Assembly (NCBI GenBank): GCA_001662655.1
Contig: KV460248.1
Direction: 5' to 3' (one strand)
Source of the DNA: Pseudogymnoascus verrucosus
Lineage: Eukaryota
DNA length: 64,000 nucleotides
This document shows, piece after piece, positions 31,042 to 53,814 of this stretch. Both the position numbers and the translations under genes were made by a program. The first letter of the stretch is position 1. The number at the start of each line of letters is the position of its first letter. The notes under the pieces were generated by a model that had not been told where the DNA came from, made no database searches, and saw only the letters and a list, made by a program, of their open reading frames with translations.

Positions 31042-34000
31042 ATGGATCCGGCCATTACCGATGAGCTCAGCAAGCTCGACGATGGCGTCGCCTTTCGAGC
31101 TTCTCCCGACCATTTCCACCATACTTGGGCCCGCACATTTTACTCTGCGCCCGAATTGTATATCCAGCCTGAATCAATCGAAGAAGTCGAGAAATTGACT
31201 ACGCTGGCACGACGATGCCGACGACGCATTACAACGGTTGGCTCCGGCCACTCGCCGTCCGACTTGACCTGCACCTCAAGCTGGATGGTGAACCTGGACA
31301 AGTTCAACAAGATCCTCTCTGTCGATAGAGAGACCGGGCTCGTGACTATGCAAGCTGGGATACGCCTCTTCCAGCTTTCAGAGGAATTGGACAAGCTTGG
31401 TCTCGCGATGCCTAACCTCGGCAGTATCAACGAGCAGTCAATTGCTGGCGCCATTTCTACTGGAACCCACGGCTCGACTCTGCTTCACAGCATTCTCTCT
31501 TCTTCGGTTACCCGGCTGAAGATCACTCTCTCGAATTCGCAAACAGTCACTTGCTCGCCAGACGAGAATGAAGACCTTTTCCGTGCCGCGCTCTGTTCTC
31601 TTGGCGCCCTCGGCGTCATCACCGAAATCACTTTCCTGGCCGTTCCAGCATTCTCACTCCATTGGAAGCAAACTCTGTACCCCCACAAGCATGTTTATGA
31701 CAAATGGAACGCCAACCTCTGGACACAAGGCGAGTTCGTGAGGGTATGGTGGTACCCATATACTCGCCGCGCAACTGTCTGGCATGCCTCGAAAACTACA
31801 CAACCTGCTTTGGACATCGTACATAAAGCTGCTTCCTTCGATTCCGCGTTTGGTTACCACGTCTACCACAACCTACTCTACATTGCACAATGGGTTCCCA
31901 GGATTATGCCGTGGGTGGAATGGTTCATTAATGGAATGCAATTTGGATTTTCAGCAGGAGAGCAGACTACTATCGAGGCAATTCAGCCATCGCGACAGGC
32001 TCTCCTCATGGACTGTCTATACAGCCAAACCGTGAACGAATGGGCTATCCCACTTCGCAATGGACCAGCTGCCCTTCGCCGCTTGACCTCTTGGCTTAAC
32101 CGACTCCCGCCTACCGATCCCGAATACGTCGAACATGGTATCCCATACAGCGCAGAGGGACTCTGGGTTCACGCACCGATCGAGGTCCGCGTCAGTGATA
32201 CAACTCTCCAGTTGAAGAACACTGACGGCTCTCCACGGAAATCTGTTCGCCCACACCTCGACACATCTGCCAAAGACGGGCCAACTCTCTATCTCAATGC
32301 GACTCTCTACCGGCCTTACAACATGGATCCTCCCTGTCTCGCTCGATACTATCAAGCTTTCGAATATTTAATGAGAGATCTTGACGGCAAACCTCACTGG
32401 GCAAAGAACTTCGAGACCACGAACGAACAACTAAAGGAAATGTACGGCGACGACCTAAAGTCGTGGCTCAATGTCAGAAACGAGGCAGACCCCGAAGGGA
32501 TGTTTGTTGGCGCGTGGCACAGAGAGTATATCCTGGGCGACGAACAACCAAGATTTGCGCTCGAAGAAGCTGAAGTCGACAGAAAGCCCATGCGAAAAGG
32601 TGGCGTTCAGATCTTCGGAGAGCTCACGTCTAAAACGGCACAAAAGGAGCGCGACGACGTAGAAGAGACGCCTATCGCCGTATCTGAAAATGTCTCTAGC
32701 TACTCAAGCCAATCGAGCTTCGACTTCCTCAACAGCAGCGAGGCTACAGAGAGCCAGCACCTGCCGACTTCCAGCACAACCGGGACAAAGGGAAAGGGAC
32801 TTGCAGAGGCAATGGAAGAAGTTTCCGGGAACAGTGAACTAACTGAGGCTGTGACCCCGGCGGCTACAATTGCCACATTGAACAGCAGCATTTCCAGCAT
32901 TGAAGCTGTTCTTCGCGACCTTGCTGATAGCCAGACTGCTACGTCTGAGAATACCGCTTCATCGACCCCAGACGGTTCTTTCCTGGAGAAGTCCGAGGAA
33001 ATTACTTCTACGTCCGAAGAAGCTGCTGCTGCCGAAGAAGCTGCACTCGTGGCCGAATTCTGGGCTGGTGCAGCTGCCGCGAAAGCAGAGGCTGCCGCAA
33101 GGGAAGAAGCCGCCGCCAAGGAAGCCGCCGCTCAGCAAGAAGCTGCCGCGAAAGAGCAAGCCGCCAAGGAGCAAGCTGCAAAGGAAGAAGCTGCCCAAAA
33201 GGAACAAGCTGCTAAGGAGCAAGCCGCAAGGGAACAAGTTGCTAAGGACCTAGCTGCCAAGGAAGAAGCTACCCGGAAGGAGCAAGCTGCTAAGGAAGAA
33301 GCTGCCCGGAAGGAACAGGCTGCCAAGGAGCAAGCTGCGAAGGAAGAAGCTGCCCGAAAGGAACAAGCAGCAAAGGAACAAGCAGCTAAGGAACAGGCTG
33401 CTAAGGAGGAAGCTACCCGGAAAGCAGAAGCTGCTGCGAAGGAACAGGCCGCTAAGGAGCAAGCTGCAAAGGAGCAGGCAGCTATGGAGCAGGCTGCCGA
33501 GGAGAAGAAAGCTGCCGAGAAGAAGGCCGCCGAGGAGAAGAAGGCTGCCGAGGAGAAGAAGGCGGCCGAGGAAAAGAAGGCTGCCGAGGAGAAGAAGGCG
33601 GCCGAGGAAAAGAAGGCTGCCGAGGAGAAGAAGGCGGCCGAGGAAAAGAAGGCGGCCGAGGAGAAGAAGGCGGCCGAGGAGAAGAAGGCGGCCGAGGAAA
33701 AAAAGGCCGCTGAGGAGAAGAAGGCCGCTGAGGAGAAGAAGGCCGCTGATGAGAAGAAGGCTGCTGAAGAGAAGGAGGCCGCCGAGGAGAAGAAGGCTGC
33801 TGAAGAGAAGGCTGCAAAGGAGAAAAAGGCCGCCGAGGAGAAGAAGGCTGCTGAAGAGAAGGCTGCCGAGGAGAAGGCTGCAAAGGAGAAGGCCGCTAAG
33901 GAGAAGGCCGCTAAGGAGCAAGCAGAGAAGGAGAAGAAGGCCGCCGAGGAGAAGAAGGCTGCTGAAGAGAAGGCCGCCGAGGAGAAGGCTGCAAAGGAGA

Positions 34001-35337
34001 AGGCCGCTAAGGAGCAAGCAGAGAAGGAGGAAGCTGCCCGGAAGGAGCAGGTTGCCAAGGAGCAAGCCGCAAAGGAGCAAGCTGCTAAGGAGAAGGCTGC
34101 TCAGGAAAAGGCTGCAAAGGAGCAAGCTGCCAAGAAGGCTGCTGAGGAGAAGGCTGCTAAGGAAGAAGCCGACCGGAAGGCAAAGGAGCAAGCCGCAAAG
34201 GAGCAAGCTGCCAAGGAAGAAGCTACCCGGAAGGCAGAAGCTGCCAAGAAGGCTGCAGAGGAGCAGGCTGCTAAAGAGCAGGCCGTAAAGGAGCAAGCAG
34301 CGAAGGAGGAAGCTACCCGAAAGGCTGAAGCTGCAGCGAAGGAGCAAGCCGCAAAGGAGCAGGCAGAAAAGGAAGAAGCTACCCGGAAAGCAGAAGCTGC
34401 TGCCAAGGAGGAAGCTGCTAAGAAGGCTGCACAGGAGCAGGCTGCTAAGGAAAAGGCCGCGAAGGAGCAGGCTGCCAAGCAAGTTGCGGAGGAAAAGGCT
34501 GCGAAGGAACAGGCGGTTGCTAAGGAGAAGGTTGCCAAGGATCAAGCTGCGAAGGAGCAAGCTGCCGCTAAGAAAGAAGCTGCTGCGAAAGAATCAGCTG
34601 CCGCAAAGAAGCCAGCTAACCCAAAGAAGTCAGCCAAGGATGCTGAGGAAAAGACAACGACCACGAAAGCGAGGCGTCTGTCGTTCGCCAAAGCAGCTGC
34701 CCTCACCCCCGAGGAAGCACCGAAATCCACCGAGCCCGCTGCGCCAGTCCTAGACCTGCACCACCTGCCACCATCACCATCGGCACCTAAAGCCAATGGC
34801 AATGGCCGCCACGTCCTCCCTCTCCAACCACGCCCCAACGGCGCGCATGCCAAGTCCAAGGCATCCACCACCAAGGAGGGAGAATCCCCGAAGGCAGCAG
34901 TAAAGAAGGAGCAGCAGCAAAGCACTACCACTGATGCCGCCGCAGCATCCCCGAAGCAGGCAAAGAAGGAGCAGCAGCAAAGCGCCACCATCACTGACGC
35001 AGCTCCCTCCAAACGCGAAGCCTTCGACGGCAGCGCCTCCACGCGCGCCGCCAAACGCGCCAAGCTCGCTGAGCTGACCGAGCAATTCGTGCAAGTCGAG
35101 ACGGTAGAGGTGACGCAGCAGAAGGAGAATGTAGCCCCGGTTGTGGCGAGACCGAACTCGCTGGATGATATGCTAGAGGAGCAGGCGAGGGCGAGGGGGG
35201 AGAGGAAGGTGGAGGGGGGGTGGAGACCGCAGGCGAGGCCGAATTCCTTGGATGAGTTGATTGAGGAGCAGAAGAGGGGAGGGGAGGGGAAGACTGCGGA
35301 GGGGGGGTGGAGACCACAGCTTAGGGCTAATTCGTAG
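31042..35337 (+). CDS. ALO1: D-arabinono-1,4-lactone oxidase with a ~900-aa C-terminal extension containing A/E/K/Q repeats
   Basis: TWARTF, covalent-[44 protein letters not shown] and PHWAK in the first ~530 aa; the ORF stays open for 1431 aa. Confidence 0.9.
33070..34611 (+). repeat. Coding repeat array: [10 protein letters not shown] 15-bp units flanking a central AAEEKK 18-bp array (~33493-33810)
   Basis: Visible in both DNA and translation, with variable third codon positions. Confidence 0.95.
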
Positions 35338-35949
35338 AGGAAGATGAGGGGAGGGAAGGGTGGTAGGGGGGGCGGGGGGTGTTTTGATATTTGATTGATT
35401 TGCTTTGGTGTGTATTATACAGCTGACTGCTATGTCTGGCGTCATAGAGGGAGATTAGATATGTTGCGATAGAATCTCCATACAATAAACCTCTACTTAA
35501 AATACTTGACTTCTAAAGATGAATTGAAGGGTTCTCGAAGGGTCCTTCGAGGACTCTTCGATGTCTTATGTGTATCACAAGATGTCACTATCCCCAGATG
35601 TGCAAAATATGTACTTGACTGTGAATCTCTTTCGTCTTCATAGATCCGAGTAATTAGTTTCGTGACCATCTACTCTAGTCCGTCTCTCTGTCCATCCATC
35701 CGTGTATATCTTCCAGAAAACGCCAAACGCCATCCCAAAATGCAAAACCCGGCTAGTATGTAGGTAGCCACCACCTATGCCAGTTGGTATACCAAACGCC
35801 CCCCTTCCCAGATCCGATTCCCATATCTTCCCCTCCCAAATGCAGCCTTTATACAAAATCCTACTCCAGAATCTCCGTAAATATATACTTCCTCTCCCAC
35901 CGCAGCGCGGTCGAGTGGTCCTCCTTCCCACCTCCTTCCTGGTAGACGC

Positions 35950-37794
35950 TCACCACGTAAACGCCTCCTCCACAAAATCAATAACCCCGCATCCCTGCAC
36001 CTCCCTCACAACCTCGCGGACATTATCGGCCAGGCCTCCCGGTCCACAAACCGTAACGCACATAGCGCCTACCTGGTTTACAACCTCATTAAGTAGAAGC
36101 ACGCGGATATTCGGACGCCCAGGGAACATCTGCACCGTCTGACTCGGACTCGTCACCTCAGCCGCGGAGCGCGGTCTCGTGACAAACAACTTGATAACCA
36201 ACAGCTCCCGACGCTGCGGCATGCGCAGCAACTCGTCCATCCACGGACGCACCCACTCCAGGTGCTCGAGGTCGCGGACGATCCAGATGAGTGTTATCTT
36301 GCGAGTTGCGATAGTGCCGTGCGGGTACTCTGTTAGGAGCTGGTGAACGTGTGAGATCTGGTGGGTGATTCCCGAGGACCCGGCGACGAGGACGCAGTGT
36401 CCGTAAGACGCGAGAGAGTGGTGGCCAGCGTAGGGTCCCTCGAAGGCGGCGCGGGTGCGGAGACGGTGGGAGGGAGCGGCGAGAGCGCGGGTGTAGAGGG
36501 AGCGCGTCATGCCTGTGTGTGCGGAGATGAGGAAGGAGACGGAAGTGCGCGCGGATTTGGGGATGGGGGAGTCAGGCGCCTTTTCGGTGGTGGGGAGGAC
36601 GCCGATGGTATCGATGCAGGTGTGGCTCGTCCAGGCGATGGAGAAGGGGTGGGATTCCCAGGGCTTGATGGACAGGAAGCGGAGGTAGGCGTGGGAGCCG
36701 GGGGCGACGTGGAGGAAGGTGGGGAGGTGGAGGGTGACGCGGCAGGCGTCGCCGGGGAGAGCTTCGACGGTGGCGTAGGTGCTGCCGCGGGAGGAGTAGT
36801 TGTAGTAGATTATGCGGGCGAAGCGGGAGAGGCGGTCGAAGAACCAGATTGCTAGGACGCCGATTGCGTAGGGGAGGAGCTCGTAGAGCTGGCCGAGCTT
36901 GCAGTGCACGCAGACGGCGAGGATGGCGGCGAAGGCGAGGATGATGTGGATGTTGAGGAAGGTCTCATAGAAGGCGTGGCGGAGGGGGGAGGGGGAGGAG
37001 ATCAGAATGATGAACATAGACGCAGTCCCGATAGTTCCCCACAGAATGAAAGGGTCGTGGGAGATTTTTCTGCCGACGCTCGACCAGCCATCGCTGGCAA
37101 TTTGGGTGATTAGCCAGGCGAGTGTGTGGATGAGGGATTCAAAGACCACCATCCTTCCCATCCAGCGGTGGAGCAAGTTGTAGGTGTCGAAGCTGATCTT
37201 TAGCATGGGGATGAGGATATTGTTGCGCCCAGCGAAGATAACAAGGGGAACCATGTTCGATAGAGCAAGCATGCCACTTCTTCCTCGTAGTTGAGCAACG
37301 ACAGACCATCGGTTCTCAACACTGTAGTCGAGTGCAGCGCAGTACGCGAAGTTGGATATGAAGTAGACGGTTAGGAGAACCATGTGGAAACGAGAGGGTA
37401 AGGTGCCGACGCTGACAGCAGAGGAAAGGCGCATCTCTCTGTTGTGTCTCTTACTCCCAAGAGGGGCGTATGTTATATTCCTCTTGATCCATGGCCACCA
37501 TGCGGACTGGTTATCTCTCCAGAATACTTGACGACCCTCTGGCTTGCCCATTGCGACCTTGTGTCGGATCCATGCCCTGGATATTTCTAGCATCCTGATC
37601 AGAAGGACGCAAATTCCGAGGATTCCTAGGAACCAAAACAAGGCATCTCGGTAGCGTCTATTGCCCAGTTGATCAACGCCATTTAAAGCTGTGGTATATG
37701 GCTCGATCGTGGGGTTTGGTCCTGAAATTCCAGTTGTTGGTGTACTTGATAGTGATCCGAGTGAGGATAACTCGGTTGACGACTCGGCCGCCAT
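35950..37794 (-). CDS. Ferric/cupric reductase transmembrane component (FRE family)
   Basis: Heme-His motifs LLHRWMGR, LIHTLAW and FLNIHIILA; FAD-binding SHPFSIA; EGPY; VAGSSGIT; VCGPGGLAD; FVEEAFTW C-terminus. The start codon is uncertain. Confidence 0.93.
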   Translation of the reverse strand: MAAESSTELSSLGSLSSTPTTGISGPNPTIEPYTTALNGVDQLGNRRYRDALFWFLGILGICVLLIRMLEISRAWIRHKVAMGKPEGRQVFWRDNQSAWWPWIKRNITYAPLGSKRHNREMRLSSAVSVGTLPSRFHMVLLTVYFISNFAYCAALDYSVENRWSVVAQLRGRSGMLALSNMVPLVIFAGRNNILIPMLKISFDTYNLLHRWMGRMVVFESLIHTLAWLITQIASDGWSSVGRKISHDPFILWGTIGTASMFIILISSPSPLRHAFYETFLNIHIILAFAAILAVCVHCKLGQLYELLPYAIGVLAIWFFDRLSRFARIIYYNYSSRGSTYATVEALPGDACRVTLHLPTFLHVAPGSHAYLRFLSIKPWESHPFSIAWTSHTCIDTIGVLPTTEKAPDSPIPKSARTSVSFLISAHTGMTRSLYTRALAAPSHRLRTRAAFEGPYAGHHSLASYGHCVLVAGSSGITHQISHVHQLLTEYPHGTIATRKITLIWIVRDLEHLEWVRPWMDELLRMPQRRELLVIKLFVTRPRSAAEVTSPSQTVQMFPGRPNIRVLLLNEVVNQVGAMCVTVCGPGGLADNVREVVREVQGCGVIDFVEEAFTW

Positions 37795-39454
37795 TGCTGA
37801 TATTGGGGCGTGCCGTATTTGTCGCAAGTTCTGCGAGGTCAATTATGGTGGAAGTAGGTTGAGAAGCGTAATATGTAACGAGGTAGTTGGTGGGGACCAA
37901 GATCGAAGTTAAATGTCTGAGGCCCTGATTAATTTCGTGATTCAGGAAGATTCGGGGGGGTTGGCAGGACTCACTCAACAAAGAGGTAGGCGAAACAATA
38001 TTCACAATGGAACAATAGTCCTTCTGCACCTCGCTAACAATAGATAGCCATTGTCCAAGTGAATTTCAATTCTTATCTTTTGTATTCTTCGCCTGCTGAA
38101 TACTGTTGAATAGGTGCGCCTGTCGCCTAGTCGAAACTCAACTGCTTGAATATCTGTCCAGCAAATATGTACTGTGAATGATGTCTGATGTCGATCAACC
38201 GCTAACGAATGTGTATAGAAAAATTAGGACCGAAGGGAAAGGAGGTGCAGGTTCATGATATAGTAATATATCACCGAGTCACATATGAAAAGTACAGCAA
38301 TGATGAAAGTAAGGAGCAAAAGCAAGCAGACGTCAAACCCGCAATATAACGAAGGCTTGGGAGAAGGGATTGGAGATTGACTGGAGATATGATAGGCATG
38401 GGTGCGGGCAACGCCAGAGCTAGTTGGGACGGGATTACAGACATGGGTATGCGCAAGCCAGCGGGGAGTCTGTGCCTTGAGAAACTTCAGAACACGTCGA
38501 CGACGCGGCAGGCTATGGCTCGTATGAGTGGAGGTCACTCGATATAGACAAGACCAGTCATGAGATGTGCAGCAAAACTGCCGACTCGGCCACAATAACG
38601 CAATAACGCAAGGAAGCGCCGGCAAGGCAGGTTTCAATGTTCCTGTTTGTTGTCCAGACATGCAGCAATTCACTCCAGGCGGTGTCGAAAGTGGCCGCCG
38701 CCACGCCAAGACGACTGGCTCACAGTCGCTGGCACCTCATCCCGTCAGCAAGGCTATGCGGTGCTTAGCGTGGGGATTGCCCCTGGCGGGCAACAAGGGA
38801 AAGGCCCGGATACGGTGCGATTCGTCGATCTTGGGGGCGTGCTGTAACCGGCGCACCTATCCGATCGGCCACAGCGACCCAATGGTCGCTGGATGTTTCA
38901 ACACTTGGCGTTTCGTTTCTGTTCCTTGCGTTTGTGCGAGGCAAGACTTACCGACGCGACGGACTTGCGCGGGATGGGGAAGGTGATTGGCGCCTGTTCA
39001 ACGGTGGCGTGGGAGACATGGGCGACATGAAACGCACGCGGCTGAGCCTGGAAATCTACGTACGTACAGTACATATGCCATACAGCGCTGTCAAAACATA
39101 CAAAGCTGAATACTCTGAACTGCTCCGAATATTCCGAAAAACTCAACAAAGAATGTTTCGCCATCAACGCCTCTCCCCCACCAAGTCAGCTTCATGCATA
39201 TTGCCCTCTCCGCGCAAACCCAAATCTCCCCAGCCCCGTATGACGCAGTTTATATTGCAAGTCTCGCCGCACAAATTAACAGTGCGGGTCACAGACTCAG
39301 ATAAATAAATAACCTGGCACTTCCATGCGGCCTCGACGCCGCCTCGGACGGCTCCTATATCCTGCCGGCTTATTGCGCCTAAATGTCACACCCGCAGTCG
39401 GGTAGTGCGGCGGAAATCAAGCCATGATGGTGTATATTTATTAAACATCAGCCA

Positions 39455-49768: not shown

Positions 49769-52700
49769 ATGACTGAACAGGAAAGGTAAGACTCCTCATC
49801 CACTGCACCAGTCACCACGAAAGAGCCCGGAATATTAGAAGGTACCATTTGGTAGCTATTTCCGCGTCTCGTTCACTGGAGTTTAAAGTGAAGCGCGACG
49901 TTTCTTGGTTATGGCAATAACGGAGGTTCTGTCCTTTCTGGAAGCAAGTGCTTCGGCCTGTCGTCCCGACAGAACCTAAAATCAACAACCCATGTACGGG
50001 GGGTGGTATGAGACAGCTATGTGATAAATAGCTAACATCAAACTCATCACAGCCACAAGCGCACGAAGTCAACACTGTCGTTACTACGCCGTAACCCAGC
50101 AAAAATCATCGACGACGAAGGGGCGTCTGATTCTGGGTCCGTTGGAAGTAGCTCCCAGCCAACCTTGCACCCAAGCGCGTCAGGCACCTCGTTACTATCG
50201 AAATCGCCTACGATGGCTGGACTAACGAAAACCGTCTCGGATTCTGGCCGGAGCGCCAAGTTGCCAGCTGCCGCGACACCAGACAAAACATTATCAATTG
50301 AACAGTCGGTTCGCAAGTTCAGAATATTCGAAGCTTTGCGGGGTGGCGACACGGCTCAGATATCCAAGAGCATTCGCGAGGCGTCTGAAGGAGCGAATGC
50401 GGCTGGCCAGCTTGAGGATACGACGATTCTACATTTGGCGATACAATGTGCGGAGCTTCCGGTTGTCGAGTATGTCCTATCAGACGGTGCATCCGCTATC
50501 GATATAAATGCGAAGGACAAAGATGGAAATACTCCGCTGCATCTTGCTGCACTACAAGGCAGGGGACAGATTGTGCGGCTGTTGCTTGCGCAAACTGGGA
50601 TCAACGACTCCATCGCCAACACTGCCGGTAAACTTCCACTGGATTTGGCGCGAACCCCGGATATCTTCCAGCAGCTGCAACTTTCCCGGTCGTTGTTCGT
50701 CGATACCAAGATCAAAGAAATCCAACTACTCATCTCCGGCGGCAACTATAAAGCGCTCAGTGATGTGCTCGAAGAGCCGCGCGTAAAGACTGTGCTGGAT
50801 ATTAATGGCGGGGAGTTCGCATCTGAGATAAGCACGGTTCAATCGGGTGGCACGTTGCTACATGAAGCGGCCCGAAGGAAGAATACCCAGCTTATCCAGG
50901 TGCTCTTGCTACATGGCGCCGATCCGTTCCGACGTGATAGGAGGGGTAAGCTTCCCCAGGATGTCACCAAGGATGAGGCGACAAGGGCTATGCTTAAGAG
51001 GTCTCCAGCAGCAGTTGCTGCGCAGAGGGGCATTCAAGAAAAGGCCGTGCTGGGCAACCTATCACAAACTGCTGCTGGGACCACCGGTGCTGCAGATGCC
51101 CTCGCAGCGAAAGAGTCACGAGAAATGAAAGGGTACTTGAAGAAATGGACAAACTATCGCAAGGGCTATCAGTTGCGATGGTTTGTGCTTGAGGATGGAG
51201 TGCTGAGCTATTATAAGAACCAGGACGATACCGGCTCAGCATGCCGCGGGGCTATCAACATGCGCATTGCCAAATTGAACATGGATCCGACTGAGAAGCA
51301 AAAATTCGAAATCATTGGAAAATCTTCCGTGAAGTACTCCCTGAAGGCCAATCACGAGGTTGAAACCAAACGGTGGTTCTGGGCCCTGAACAACTCCATC
51401 CAGTGGACAAAGGATCAGGCGAAGGAGGAGTATAAGCAGAAGGAACGTGTTTCCGAGCTCCTTCGTCAGGCTAAGGCTGAGCAATCAGAGAGAACTTCAA
51501 GGGATCATTCATCGGTTAACTTGGCGCCTGAAAGCGTTTCTGGTAGTGATATTCGACGAGGCAGCATGCAGAGCGTTAGAGCGACCCCTACGAGCGAGCC
51601 GTCCCGCCAGCCAAGCCAGCGTGTTACATTTAAGGGAACAAGTGTTGCTGGTAGTGTGCAAGATGAAGATGAGGGCACCGCATATGGCTCATACGAGGCC
51701 AGCTTTGTGAACGATGCAACTCGCATTACAGGCACTATCGCCAACCAACAGTTCGATGGTGACTACGAGGAAGACTACGGCGATGATGCCAGCAGCCGAG
51801 AGCGTGCACCTGTCAGCAAGGATGCGTTCGATATCACCGCACAATCCGCCAAGTTACAACTTGACATGATGAGCCAAGTCCACACTGCTATATTGTCGGA
51901 ACAAAGCCAGAACCCAGGTGCAACCATCTCAGATCCTTTGATCAGACAAGCACTATCTACCTATGACAACTCTATTCGAAGCCTTAACGGTCTCTTGAGC
52001 GATATGACCAAGATCTCGAAAGATCGAGATGACTACTGGCAACGACGACTTGACCACGAAGCAGAATTGCGTCAAATGTGGGAAGATAGCATGGCACAAG
52101 TTGCTCGGGAGCAAGAAGTCTTGGAGGCTAGAATGGGTGAATCAGAGGAGAAGCGAAAGCGCACGAAGCGGGCTCTGCGAGAAGTGATAGAGAGCACCAG
52201 CAGACCAGAAAGCAGGGGTTCTGTTCACGAACCTGGGTTGGTCGAGGCAGTGGAGGCTATCGAAGCTCCTGACGGCGTCGCTACTCTCAGGAGGCGTGCA
52301 TCATCGACCAAAAGCACGTTGCGGCGTAAGTCGATACTGGCAGACATCAAAATCCTTTCCGATTCTGATTCGGAAGATGATGAAGAGTTCTTCGATGCCG
52401 TAGATGCTGGCGAGATTGCCGTTGGCGAAATGCCAATGAGCCCAAAAGCAGAAGAACCTACAGAAGAGAAGAGCATGCAACTCACTCTAGCTGGTGGTGT
52501 TGACTTGACCTCGTCCTACCTCGGTTATGAAGATGGTATTCGAAAACGTCTGAAGATGGATGCCGATGACAGGCCGAAGATTTCACTCTGGGTAAGCTAT
52601 CACACTACAGTATTGGAGAAGACAGTTTGCTAACATTCGCTCAGAGTATTCTCAGATCTATGGTTGGCAAAGACATGACGAAGATGACATTACCTGTCTC

Positions 52701-53814
52701 ATTTAACGAACCAACTTCCTTACTGCAGCGATGTGCTGAAGATATGGAATATACAGATCTTCTAGATACTGCTGCCGGGCGGGCGGATCCTACGGAGCGA
52801 ATGGTGTATGTTGCAGCATTTGCCGCAAGTGAATATGCTTCAACTATCGGCCGTGTTGCAAAGCCTTTTAATCCTTTACTCGGCGAAACCTTCGAGTATG
52901 CTCGGCCAGACAAAGAGTTCCGCTTCTTCATCGAGCAAGTCAGCCATCACCCCCCTATTGGAGCCGCGTGGGCAGAATCGCCAAGGTGGACATACTGGGG
53001 AGAGTCTGCTGTCAAATCGAAGTTTTACGGAAAGTCCTTCGATATCAATCCCCTGGGTACATGGTTCTTAAGGCTTCGTCCCACAAATGGGGACAAAGAA
53101 GAGCTCTACACCTGGAAGAAGGTCACCTCTTCTGTCATCGGTATTATCACTGGGTCCCCAACAGTTGACAACTATGGTATCATGGAAGTGAAGAACTGGA
53201 CTACAGGCGAAGTTTCGACAGTTGATTTCAAGCCGCGAGGCTGGACCGCCAGCTCAGCCTACAACATCAGTGGTCGTGTCCTTGATGCCCGCGGCAAGCC
53301 ACGCTTCAGCTTGGGAGGCAAATGGAATAGCAAGTTTTATGCCAGGTTAACGCCCGGGTACGAAGCACCGATTGAAGAGCCCAAGGGTGAGCTTCGCCAC
53401 CAAGATAGCGTTGTCGACGTGAACCAGGCTTTCCTGGTCTGGCAAGCAAATCCCAGACCAACAGGAATCCCCTTCAACTTGACGCCGTTTGTTGTCACTC
53501 TGAACGATATCAATGATAAGTTAAGGCCATATCTGCCGCCAACCGACACGAGATTAAGACCGGATCAAAGGGCTATGGAAGATGGAGAGTATGCTCTTGC
53601 TGCGACAGAGAAGAACCGTGTTGAGGAGAAGCAGAGAGCTACAAGGAAGAGGAGAGAGATGAACGGAGAGGAGTTTATTCCTCATTGGTTCAAGAAGAAT
53701 AAGTGCCCGATTACTGGAGAAGAGTACTGGGATTTCACGGGCCAGTATTGGGAGGAGAGAGAGAAGGCTGGCAAGGGCGAGAGCAATTGGGATGGGGTTG
53801 AGCGCATTTTCTAG
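49769..53814 (+). CDS. OSH1: Oxysterol-binding protein with ankyrin repeats, PH domain, FFAT motif and ORD (Osh1/Osh2 type); exons 49769-49785, 50053-52591, 52646-53814
   Basis: Ankyrin [56 protein letters not shown] and EQVSHHPP. Confidence 0.93.

Follow-up and report, generated by a model that had tools for sequence, protein, structure and literature searches.

We analysed a stretch of 64,000 nucleotides from Pseudogymnoascus verrucosus (contig KV460248.1; hereafter the window), in which the ALO1 gene for D-arabinono-1,4-lactone oxidase runs on, past the enzyme proper, into a very long C-terminal extension. Comparison with relatives shows that this extension is no fusion: about 850 residues have been inserted into an ancestral C-terminal peptide and separate its two halves. 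Its central part is a rod of 514 residues which, from sequence statistics and structure prediction, we infer to be a single, monomeric, semi-rigid α-helix of about 77 nm and not a coiled coil. An earlier reading of the letters without database searches (the sequence-only reading) had described the gene as a true orthologue of ALO1 in which a very long helical A/E/K/Q segment is constrained at the level of the protein, and this description is supported. It had also proposed that the segment was fused onto the end of the enzyme, which had to be given up, as the insertion lies inside the ancestral C-terminal peptide and PQLRANS is still the end of the protein.

The frame on the plus strand is open from 30970 to a stop codon at 35335-35337, and its first ATG at 31042 gives an N-terminus that agrees with the MDPAIT of the orthologues. 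The whole coding frame (31042-35337, plus strand) has 1431 codons plus the stop, apparently in a single exon, and the gene models P0002-P0006 and P0152 of Pseudogymnoascus are collinear with its product P0001. Two Pfam domains exceeded their gathering scores: FAD_binding_4, for flavin adenine dinucleotide (FAD), at residues 37-172 (31150-31557, plus strand; E 1.7e-27, 96.3 bits against a cutoff of 26.4), and ALO at residues 196-495 (31627-32526, plus strand; E 9.1e-80, 268.5 bits against 23.1), which covers profile positions 1-257 of 258. The first contains the motif GHSPS (G69, H70, S71, P72, S73), invariant in all 74 aligned sequences, the window protein included, and its histidine H70 is presumably the site of covalent FAD attachment. 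With both domains and this histidine present, P0001 is placed by its sequence among the ALO/GULO aldonolactone oxidases, flavoenzymes of the VAO type. The gene is the ALO1 of a Pseudogymnoascus species close to P. destructans: the best protein matches are Pseudogymnoascus proteins, the exact sequence being absent from the protein collection searched, and in a tree of ALO cores (IQ-TREE) the window protein is sister to P. destructans P0152 with support 100/98, the ALO parts being 95% identical. Identity of the ALO core to other Leotiomycete ALO proteins is 61-69%. The ALO fold is predicted to extend to approximately residue 530, as block means of the predicted local distance difference test (pLDDT) are at least 80 up to there in an AlphaFold2 model of the orthologue P0006 made with an alignment. 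Beyond the ALO domain the frame continues for 936 residues.

The nature of this continuation became apparent from shorter relatives. Mid-length proteins (592-624 aa; P0032, P0036, P0039, P0040) end in SSFD[VIM][LM]HGGEAxESQxL(M)PQFRPN[AS], and the ancestral end of one such orthologue reads ESQLLPQFRPNS. In the window protein the first half of this peptide lies at residues 555-575 (32704-32766, plus strand), where SSFD...ESQHLP aligns with SSFD[VI]LHGGEAEESQxL(M)P; ESQHLP immediately precedes the insert, and the second half, PQLRANS, forms the final seven residues. The pattern PQxRxN[SA] is carried by 12 of 143 ALO homologues, five mid-length and seven long, in every case not more than 10 residues from the C-terminus; the seven long forms have an extra copy 27-39 residues upstream, and there is no other occurrence among the 143. 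A bridging form was found on a metagenome contig (L001), which encodes in one frame an ALO of 1078 aa (P0155) with the order SSFDILHGGEAGESLESQLLPQ, a short linker, a rod of about 330 residues, LLPQFRPDA, KREVPDPSAFTRASKRVK, a 20-residue segment and an end in VWMPQLRVNA. From this form and from the positions of PQxRxN[SA] it follows that in the Pseudogymnoascus ARPNSLD[DE][ML]LEEQ...GGWRPQ units the ancestral terminal peptide would have been copied. An 87-nt tandem duplication at 35145-35319 gave rise to the last two units. Read in this way from the alignments, the tail has three to four copies of the peptide, the fourth being the degenerate LPLQPRPNG.

Gene fusion was ruled out, as the ancestral end is retained and the tail is without stand-alone relatives. 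A HMMER search with the tail alone against 1.84 billion representative proteins found no stand-alone donor gene; its three matches were one Pseudogymnoascus representative, one fragment of 197 aa sharing the tail, and a spurious repeat protein.

The insert is not confined to this strain or genus, as far as the aligned sequences tell. The seven long Pseudogymnoascus orthologues have 1320 (P0002), 1261 (P0003), 1285 (P0004), 1481 (P0005), 1029 (P0006), 1298 (P0152) and 1431 (window) aa, and in two further ones a contig end interrupts the rod. GGWRPQLR[AV]NS is the end of six of the seven, and the frame has therefore been kept through rods of very different length. In P0152, the seventh, the final EEQ... 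unit present in the six other Pseudogymnoascus proteins is missing; a real change, a gene-model issue and an assembly issue are all possible. Other long forms are the 1078-aa protein of L001 and a sister group of 812-898 aa. In the IQ-TREE analysis of 37 ALO cores (48 rows were chosen and 11, missed by the anchor patterns, dropped) the long forms make up one clade of 14 rows with support 99/98, nine from Pseudogymnoascus and five from the sister group. A FastTree analysis of 38 rows that included L001 recovered a clade of 15 rows with support 0.996, the position of L001 inside it having 0.42; all 15 rows are at least 792 aa long and all 23 rows outside are at most 624 aa. The sequence-only reading had called for such a comparison of lengths across relatives, and its statement of what is typical for the family agrees with it, 119 of the 143 homologues retrieved being 514-624 aa long.

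The rods of this clade are without common sequence: units of the AAKEQ/AAEEKK type are found here, ARLAEE hexads in L001 and a non-repetitive mixture of E, K, R, A, Q and L in the sister group. On this comparison the rod sequence appears to have been replaced between lineages while the tail motifs stayed and were multiplied. The L001 rod (open reading frame (ORF) at L001:3166-6402) has Leu in every ARLAEE hexad, unlike the window rod; just downstream of the L001 ALO, on the opposite strand, lies a 593-aa ORF (L001:7748-9529).

Between the upstream half of the ancestral peptide and the rod is a Ser/Thr/Glu-rich linker (residues 576-676; 32767-33069, plus strand), in which a short helix is predicted around residues 606-633. 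This helix motif, at 32863-32937, corresponds to residues 87-114 of an AlphaFold2 model, with block-mean pLDDT of 73-76. The rod follows at residues 677-1190 (33070-34611, plus strand), the longest run in P0001 without P, G, F, W, Y or H, and is predicted as one unbroken α-helix. The sequence-only reading had given it as 514 residues free of Pro, Gly and aromatics at 33070-34611, which is exact. It is composed of A194 E129 K123 Q39 R11 V6 T5 D4 L1 M1 S1, so that A, E, K and Q make up 94%, and its units are AAKEQ (20 copies), AAEEKK (16), AAKEE (9), EEATRK (5) and EEAARK (3), with tandem periods of 15, 18, 33, 48, 63 and 111 nt (Tandem Repeats Finder). In all six frames, the window has no other stretch with at least 80% A/E/K/Q over 100 aa. 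Opposite the rod lie two long ORFs on the antisense strand (33132-34058 and 33250-34560), which were dismissed as genes, given that low-complexity DNA gives such ORFs in any frame.

Variation at wobble positions with the residues kept had been taken to suggest selection at the protein level. The variation is real: 16 different DNA versions encode the 20 AAKEQ copies, and seven encode the 16 AAEEKK copies. One correction concerns the AAEEKK block, which also includes an exact repeat. The hexad array (33491-33987, plus strand; 18-nt period, 28.9 copies) contains an exact repeat of 80 nt at an offset of 36 nt (33538 and 33574, spanning 33538-33653), and therefore the block would be in part a recent expansion. 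It looks like a lineage-specific one, as no such array was seen in the P. destructans orthologue P0152. The 80-nt repeat at 33538-33653 may represent either a very recent expansion or a miscounting of copies in the short-read assembly, which bears on the rod length of 514.

The disordered tail (residues 1191-1431, 241 aa; 34612-35334, plus strand) has pLDDT mostly below 50 in both models, and contains conserved short motifs. KARRLSFAK (34666-34692, plus strand) is kept in Pseudogymnoascus (alignment A2); in the form [AP]RRLSFAK it is present in all five Pseudogymnoascus rows of that alignment and absent from L001, and it contains what we take to be an R-R-x-S site of the basophilic-kinase type. 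LPLQPRPNG (34816-34842, plus strand), in which the ancestral LLPQFRPN[AS] recurs internally in degenerate form, is aligned to LLPQFRPDA in L001 and to LPLQSCPNG in P0153. A conserved block at 35008-35076 (plus strand) is predicted as a short helix (residues 1333-1350), and its K, R, E and R-A-x-K-R-x-K are invariant in seven sequences including L001. The terminal motif cluster (35143-35334, plus strand) holds the 87-nt duplication, its last peptide being the ancestral C-terminus, and R-P-x-S-L-D-x-x-L-E-E-Q-A in the tail is invariant across seven sequences. Within the genus, identity is 89-95% in the ALO part, 67-88% in the post-ALO region and linker, and 61-81% in the tail; the identity of the tail to that of L001 is 35%.

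The case for a genuine long frame rests on the cross-strain comparison, and is strong. In the contigs of relatives that cover the gene, seven of the eight listed in-frame indels are multiples of three (3, 3, 3, 30, 3, 3 and 3 nt), while the four listed upstream of the ATG are of 1, 2, 1 and 4 nt. The net length changes at the three rod joints with listed letters, -111, +120 and +99 nt, are also all multiples of three, and one relative's contig spans 32397-33183, from the end of ALO into the rod, free of gaps. Contigs of run X1, of unspecified kind, extend over the domain, linker, rod and tail, and are not taken as a sign of expression. Codon position 3 holds 24 of the 38 listed in-frame substitutions, and synonymous to non-synonymous counts are 9:4 in ALO, 3:1 in the linker, 4:4 in the rod and 7:6 in the tail; these counts come from 38 in-frame differences among the 40 shown out of 289 in all, a small subset, and are suggestive.

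A strict scan for donor, branch and acceptor gave no canonical intron candidate in the frame, and no GT donor was found after ESQHLP. A long intron joining ESQHLP to PQLRANS was ruled out on these grounds, and on the conservation of frame and motifs through the insert. In some mid-length relatives we suspect from the sequences an intron at the insertion site, as P0034 ends cleanly at ..LMP; genes of mid-length relatives with the motif were not found among 80 metagenome loci.

The physical nature of the rod was examined through its charges and periodicity. It has 133 acidic and 134 basic residues, a net charge of +1 over 514 residues, and only eight residues are L, I, V, M, F, W, Y or C. Pairs of opposite charge at i/i+4 number 137 against about 69 expected from 500 composition-preserving shuffles (z 8.7 and 7.0), pairs of the same charge number 5 against 68 expected, and 249 of the 267 charged residues have a partner at i±3/4. 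The identity autocorrelation peaks at lags 5 (0.56), 6 (0.47) and 11 (0.43) and is 0.20 at lag 7. As an index of an apolar seam we used the vector sum of the Ala and hydrophobic positions, with 100 or 102.9 degrees for each residue; it is 0.11-0.12 for the rod, compared with 0.20 for shuffles and 0.66-0.75 for a control of AEEAKKA heptads. AlphaFold2 run on residues 520-1431 without an alignment predicts one unbroken helix at 663-1184 (model residues 144-665; 10-residue block-mean pLDDT approximately 58-86) and short helices at 606-633, 1333-1350, 1374-1386 and 1403-1412, the remainder being disordered. For P0006, which has a short rod, a model with the 74-sequence alignment gave block-mean pLDDT of 71-92 in the rod and left the SSFD motif, the C-terminal peptides and the tail undocked from the enzyme. 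A complex prediction with two copies of a 250-residue rod piece (score 0.00, mark 0.32) counts neither way. An α-helix rises 0.15 nm per residue, so that 514 residues would span about 77 nm, close to the 75 nm that had been estimated from the letters. The single-helix proposal made at that stage likewise fits the i/i+4 charge statistics, the absent apolar seam and the AlphaFold2 models.

The rod shares with single α-helix (SAH) domains the dense i/i+4 pairs of opposite charge and has neither a hydrophobic seam nor a heptad register; the heptad repeat with apolar a and d positions that defines a coiled coil is absent from it. In typical SAH domains, according to excerpts of PMC5812594, E/K/R or polar residues take up about 80% of the positions and a heptad has few alanines. 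We class the rod as SAH-like and not as a proven SAH, because its charge pairing fits and its composition does not. Among the Pfam families, the sole match of the extension was HC2 (18 bits against a cutoff of 40), which was rejected as compositional. A protein search with the rod alone returned, apart from orthologues, only compositional look-alikes in unrelated proteins. The A/E/K-rich segments that score against it are in P0156-P0164, which are mostly metagenomic (a TsaA methyltransferase, an S1-C protease, PD40-repeat proteins); linkers of this kind apparently arise again and again.

What the rod might do is suggested by the position of the enzyme in yeast. The accessible parts of two reports describe yeast Alo1 as a protein of the mitochondrial outer membrane that works as a C-terminal marker with green fluorescent protein (PMC10783438), and its cross-linking to Por1 (PMC7338081). 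By analogy, the oxidase would sit on the mitochondrial outer membrane here too, and the extension would face the cytosol because a rod of 77 nm would not fit across the intermembrane space. That space is tens of nanometres wide at most. We propose that the rod is a semi-rigid spacer keeping the ancestral C-terminal peptides far from the oxidase, a reading that we hold to be about evenly poised between right and wrong. The helix would act as a length-setting spacer or leash, so that the multiplied C-terminal peptides would lie tens of nanometres away from the enzyme and could there reach a partner. Selection would then act on a long charged helix in frame with the tail, on its helicity and its charge balance, and not on the helix sequence, and because selection would ignore that sequence, repeat units would keep being replaced by slippage.

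Several findings weigh against this spacer. P. destructans P0152 ends in RPQARPNLSDELVGGEKGKGGK, without the final PQLRANS, and the sister group P0009-P0012 is without both flanking motifs, P0012 having a real stop without PQFRPNS. A single-base insertion lies inside the frame at 33671 (run X23, one contig), and the substitution counts in the rod and the tail are small. The AlphaFold2 model without alignment has a mean pLDDT of only 58.7. In composition the rod, with 52% charged residues, 8% Gln and 38% Ala, departs from SAH domains, and Ala-enriched de novo designs dimerised or aggregated, as excerpts of PMC5812594 and PMC5347031 report. Finally, the rod length ranges from 89 to 514 residues among orthologues (measured as the stretch free of Pro, Gly and aromatics), which weakens the idea of a strict ruler, although the range may partly reflect collapsed short-read assemblies.

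A bolder form of the spacer proposal, which we consider rather unlikely, is that a Leotiomycete clade made of an outer-membrane redox enzyme a leash of 50-80 nm, LLPQFRPNS being a docking motif that was multiplied and pushed out on a single helix. The docking target could be a second organelle, the cytoskeleton, or a factor of signalling or autophagy, and the helix would be continually rebuilt by repeat turnover with its helical, charge-balanced character maintained. If true, the helix would rank with the longest single helices in nature, and a tether would have evolved here through an insertion into a short linear motif.

The main rival to a spacer is that the rod is tolerated repeat junk, in which replication slippage inflated a microsatellite-like, A/E/K/Q-coding tract in a disordered C-terminal region, the frame being kept open for the tail motifs and the helix having no function. 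The great differences in rod length among close relatives (89-514 residues), the replacement of units between lineages, the ongoing expansion shown by the 80-nt exact repeat, the many in-frame length changes in relatives' contigs and the comparable A/E/K-rich linkers in the unrelated P0156-P0164 all speak for it. However, a long, charged, helical segment has been retained in every one of the 15 clade members, with three different repeat chemistries; the charge order of the rod goes far beyond its composition (i/i+4 z about 7-9) at a net charge of +1, helix breakers are fully excluded, and identical rod peptides are encoded by many synonymous versions. We regard functionless slippage as doubtful, if worth serious attention.

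Quite unlikely, in our view, is a stress-protective role, in which the rod would be a hydrophilic helix, cold-protective or resembling the late embryogenesis abundant (LEA) proteins, that shields mitochondria or the enzyme. Pseudogymnoascus is psychrotolerant, the A, K, E and Q composition presumably resembles that of group-3 LEA proteins, and the rod has a secondary periodicity of 11 residues (lag-11 identity 0.43). Against this, neither LEA_4 nor any other LEA family matched the rod, the linker or the tail at E up to 10, and the LEA relationship put forward by the sequence-only reading finds no support there. The dominant periods are 5 and 6 (0.56 and 0.47), the signal at 11 being their sum, and protection would leave unexplained why the ancestral terminal peptide is retained and multiplied beyond the rod.

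Only a small chance is given to self-association of the rod as an Ala-based coiled coil or bundle, which would bring the oxidase together in oligomers or build a lattice on the surface. Ala makes up 38% of the rod, the L001 rod has Leu in every hexad, and the Ala-enriched heptad design AEEAKKA is helical but apparently dimeric in the accessible portion of PMC5347031. The window rod, however, gives no heptad signal (lag 7, 0.20) and no apolar seam (0.11-0.12 versus 0.66-0.75), Ala is distributed around the helix more evenly than in shuffles (0.20), and eight of 514 residues are larger hydrophobics. We hold it very unlikely that the long frame is artefactual, through mis-assembly, a long intron left unspliced or the joining of two genes in one reading, and that the real product is an ALO1 of ordinary size, about 580 aa. 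Repeats do make assembly difficult and an older P. destructans model, P0031 (690 aa, partial), is cut at the rod, but the same in-frame architecture and conserved end recur in independent assemblies of at least eight strains and one metagenome contig, the tail motif blocks are conserved across approximately 25% ALO-domain divergence, and to this are added the gap-free contig over 32397-33183 and the lack of splice signals.

Many ALO proteins of Leotiomycetes and Dothideomycetes have, after the ALO fold, an acidic Ser-rich motif, SSxSSF[DG]x[LMV]; examples are 32704-32766 of the window, P0047, P0049, P0066, P0019 and P0020, and the strict pattern matches 21 of the 143 homologues. Its core F-x-x-[LVM] with upstream Ser and acidic residues resembles, as we understand it, the Atg8-interacting motif (LC3-interacting region, LIR/AIM). 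A possible motif of this kind on an outer-membrane enzyme might merit a look.

The genes around ALO1 are ordinary fungal housekeeping genes, for isopropylmalate synthase, importin beta, a convergent ferric reductase, Pan3 and an oxysterol-binding protein. The ferric reductase ORF (35950-37842, minus strand) has its 3' end about 600 nt from the ALO1 stop, and the GC content falls to 45% in 35338-35949. At 50165-52633 an ORF with ankyrin and PH domains adjoins one with an oxysterol-binding domain at 52627-53814, both on the plus strand, and the pair are probably exons of one gene of the OSBP type.

The enzyme family and the type of helix are each known, and their combination appears to be undescribed. 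No paper in the open PMC and bioRxiv full text contained both 'Pseudogymnoascus' and 'lactone oxidase', and none in the same text named P. destructans GMDG_06905, OAF63268 or XP_024328537; public records label the long ALO1 proteins 'hypothetical protein' or simply the oxidase. We flag the conserved C-terminal peptide on fungal ALO1 as unstudied. If the rod is a monomeric helix, it would be a natural test case for the maximal length of an Ala-rich E/K helix, for selection on length, charge balance and helicity despite sequence replacement, and for the turning of a short C-terminal motif into a long-reach tether. The pathogen of bat white-nose disease, in whose copy the end is deviant, belongs to this genus; our finding has no evident bearing on virulence.

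Compared with known systems, the protein has the same two Pfam domains and the same GHSPS histidine as fungal Alo1 of S. cerevisiae and C. albicans and Bcalo1 of Botrytis. It differs in its length, these proteins being typically 514-624 aa versus 1431 aa here, with the insertion of about 850 residues before the last seven. With the SAH (ER/K) domains of myosin 6 and 10, INCENP, caldesmon and the CAF-1 KER the rod has in common a dense i/i+4 Glu-Lys pairing, the lack of a hydrophobic seam, the prediction as an isolated helix, and a place between a globular domain and a terminal binding region. The roles proposed for such domains, in excerpts of PMC5812594, PMC4183817 and PMC4571873, are those of a connector, a spring or a 'dog leash'. 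At 514 residues the window rod is several times longer than the examples in the parts cited, 98-residue designs (PMC5347031) and a KER helix of 128 angstrom (PMC10335832). It differs from them also in being 52% charged and 38% Ala and in its simple tandem repeats of five and six residues.

The Ala-based E/K helical peptides and rigid (EAAAK)n linkers likewise space Glu and Lys four residues apart on Ala, as AAKEQ does. The window rod is natural, hundreds of residues long, has Gln for one Ala and is mixed with hexads; the likeness draws in part on general remarks in excerpts of PMC5347031. Group-3 LEA proteins (LEA_4) are similar in being A/K/E/Q-rich with a weak 11-residue periodicity, whereas the rod has no match to their profile at E up to 10, has primary periods of 5 and 6 and is embedded in an enzyme between conserved motifs. 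The last parallel is domain II of TolA from Gram-negative bacteria, an unrelated protein and shorter than the window rod; its long Ala/Lys/Glu-rich helix, which leads from a membrane-associated part over a defined gap to a C-terminal binding part, we take to be a functional analogy for the spacer proposed here.

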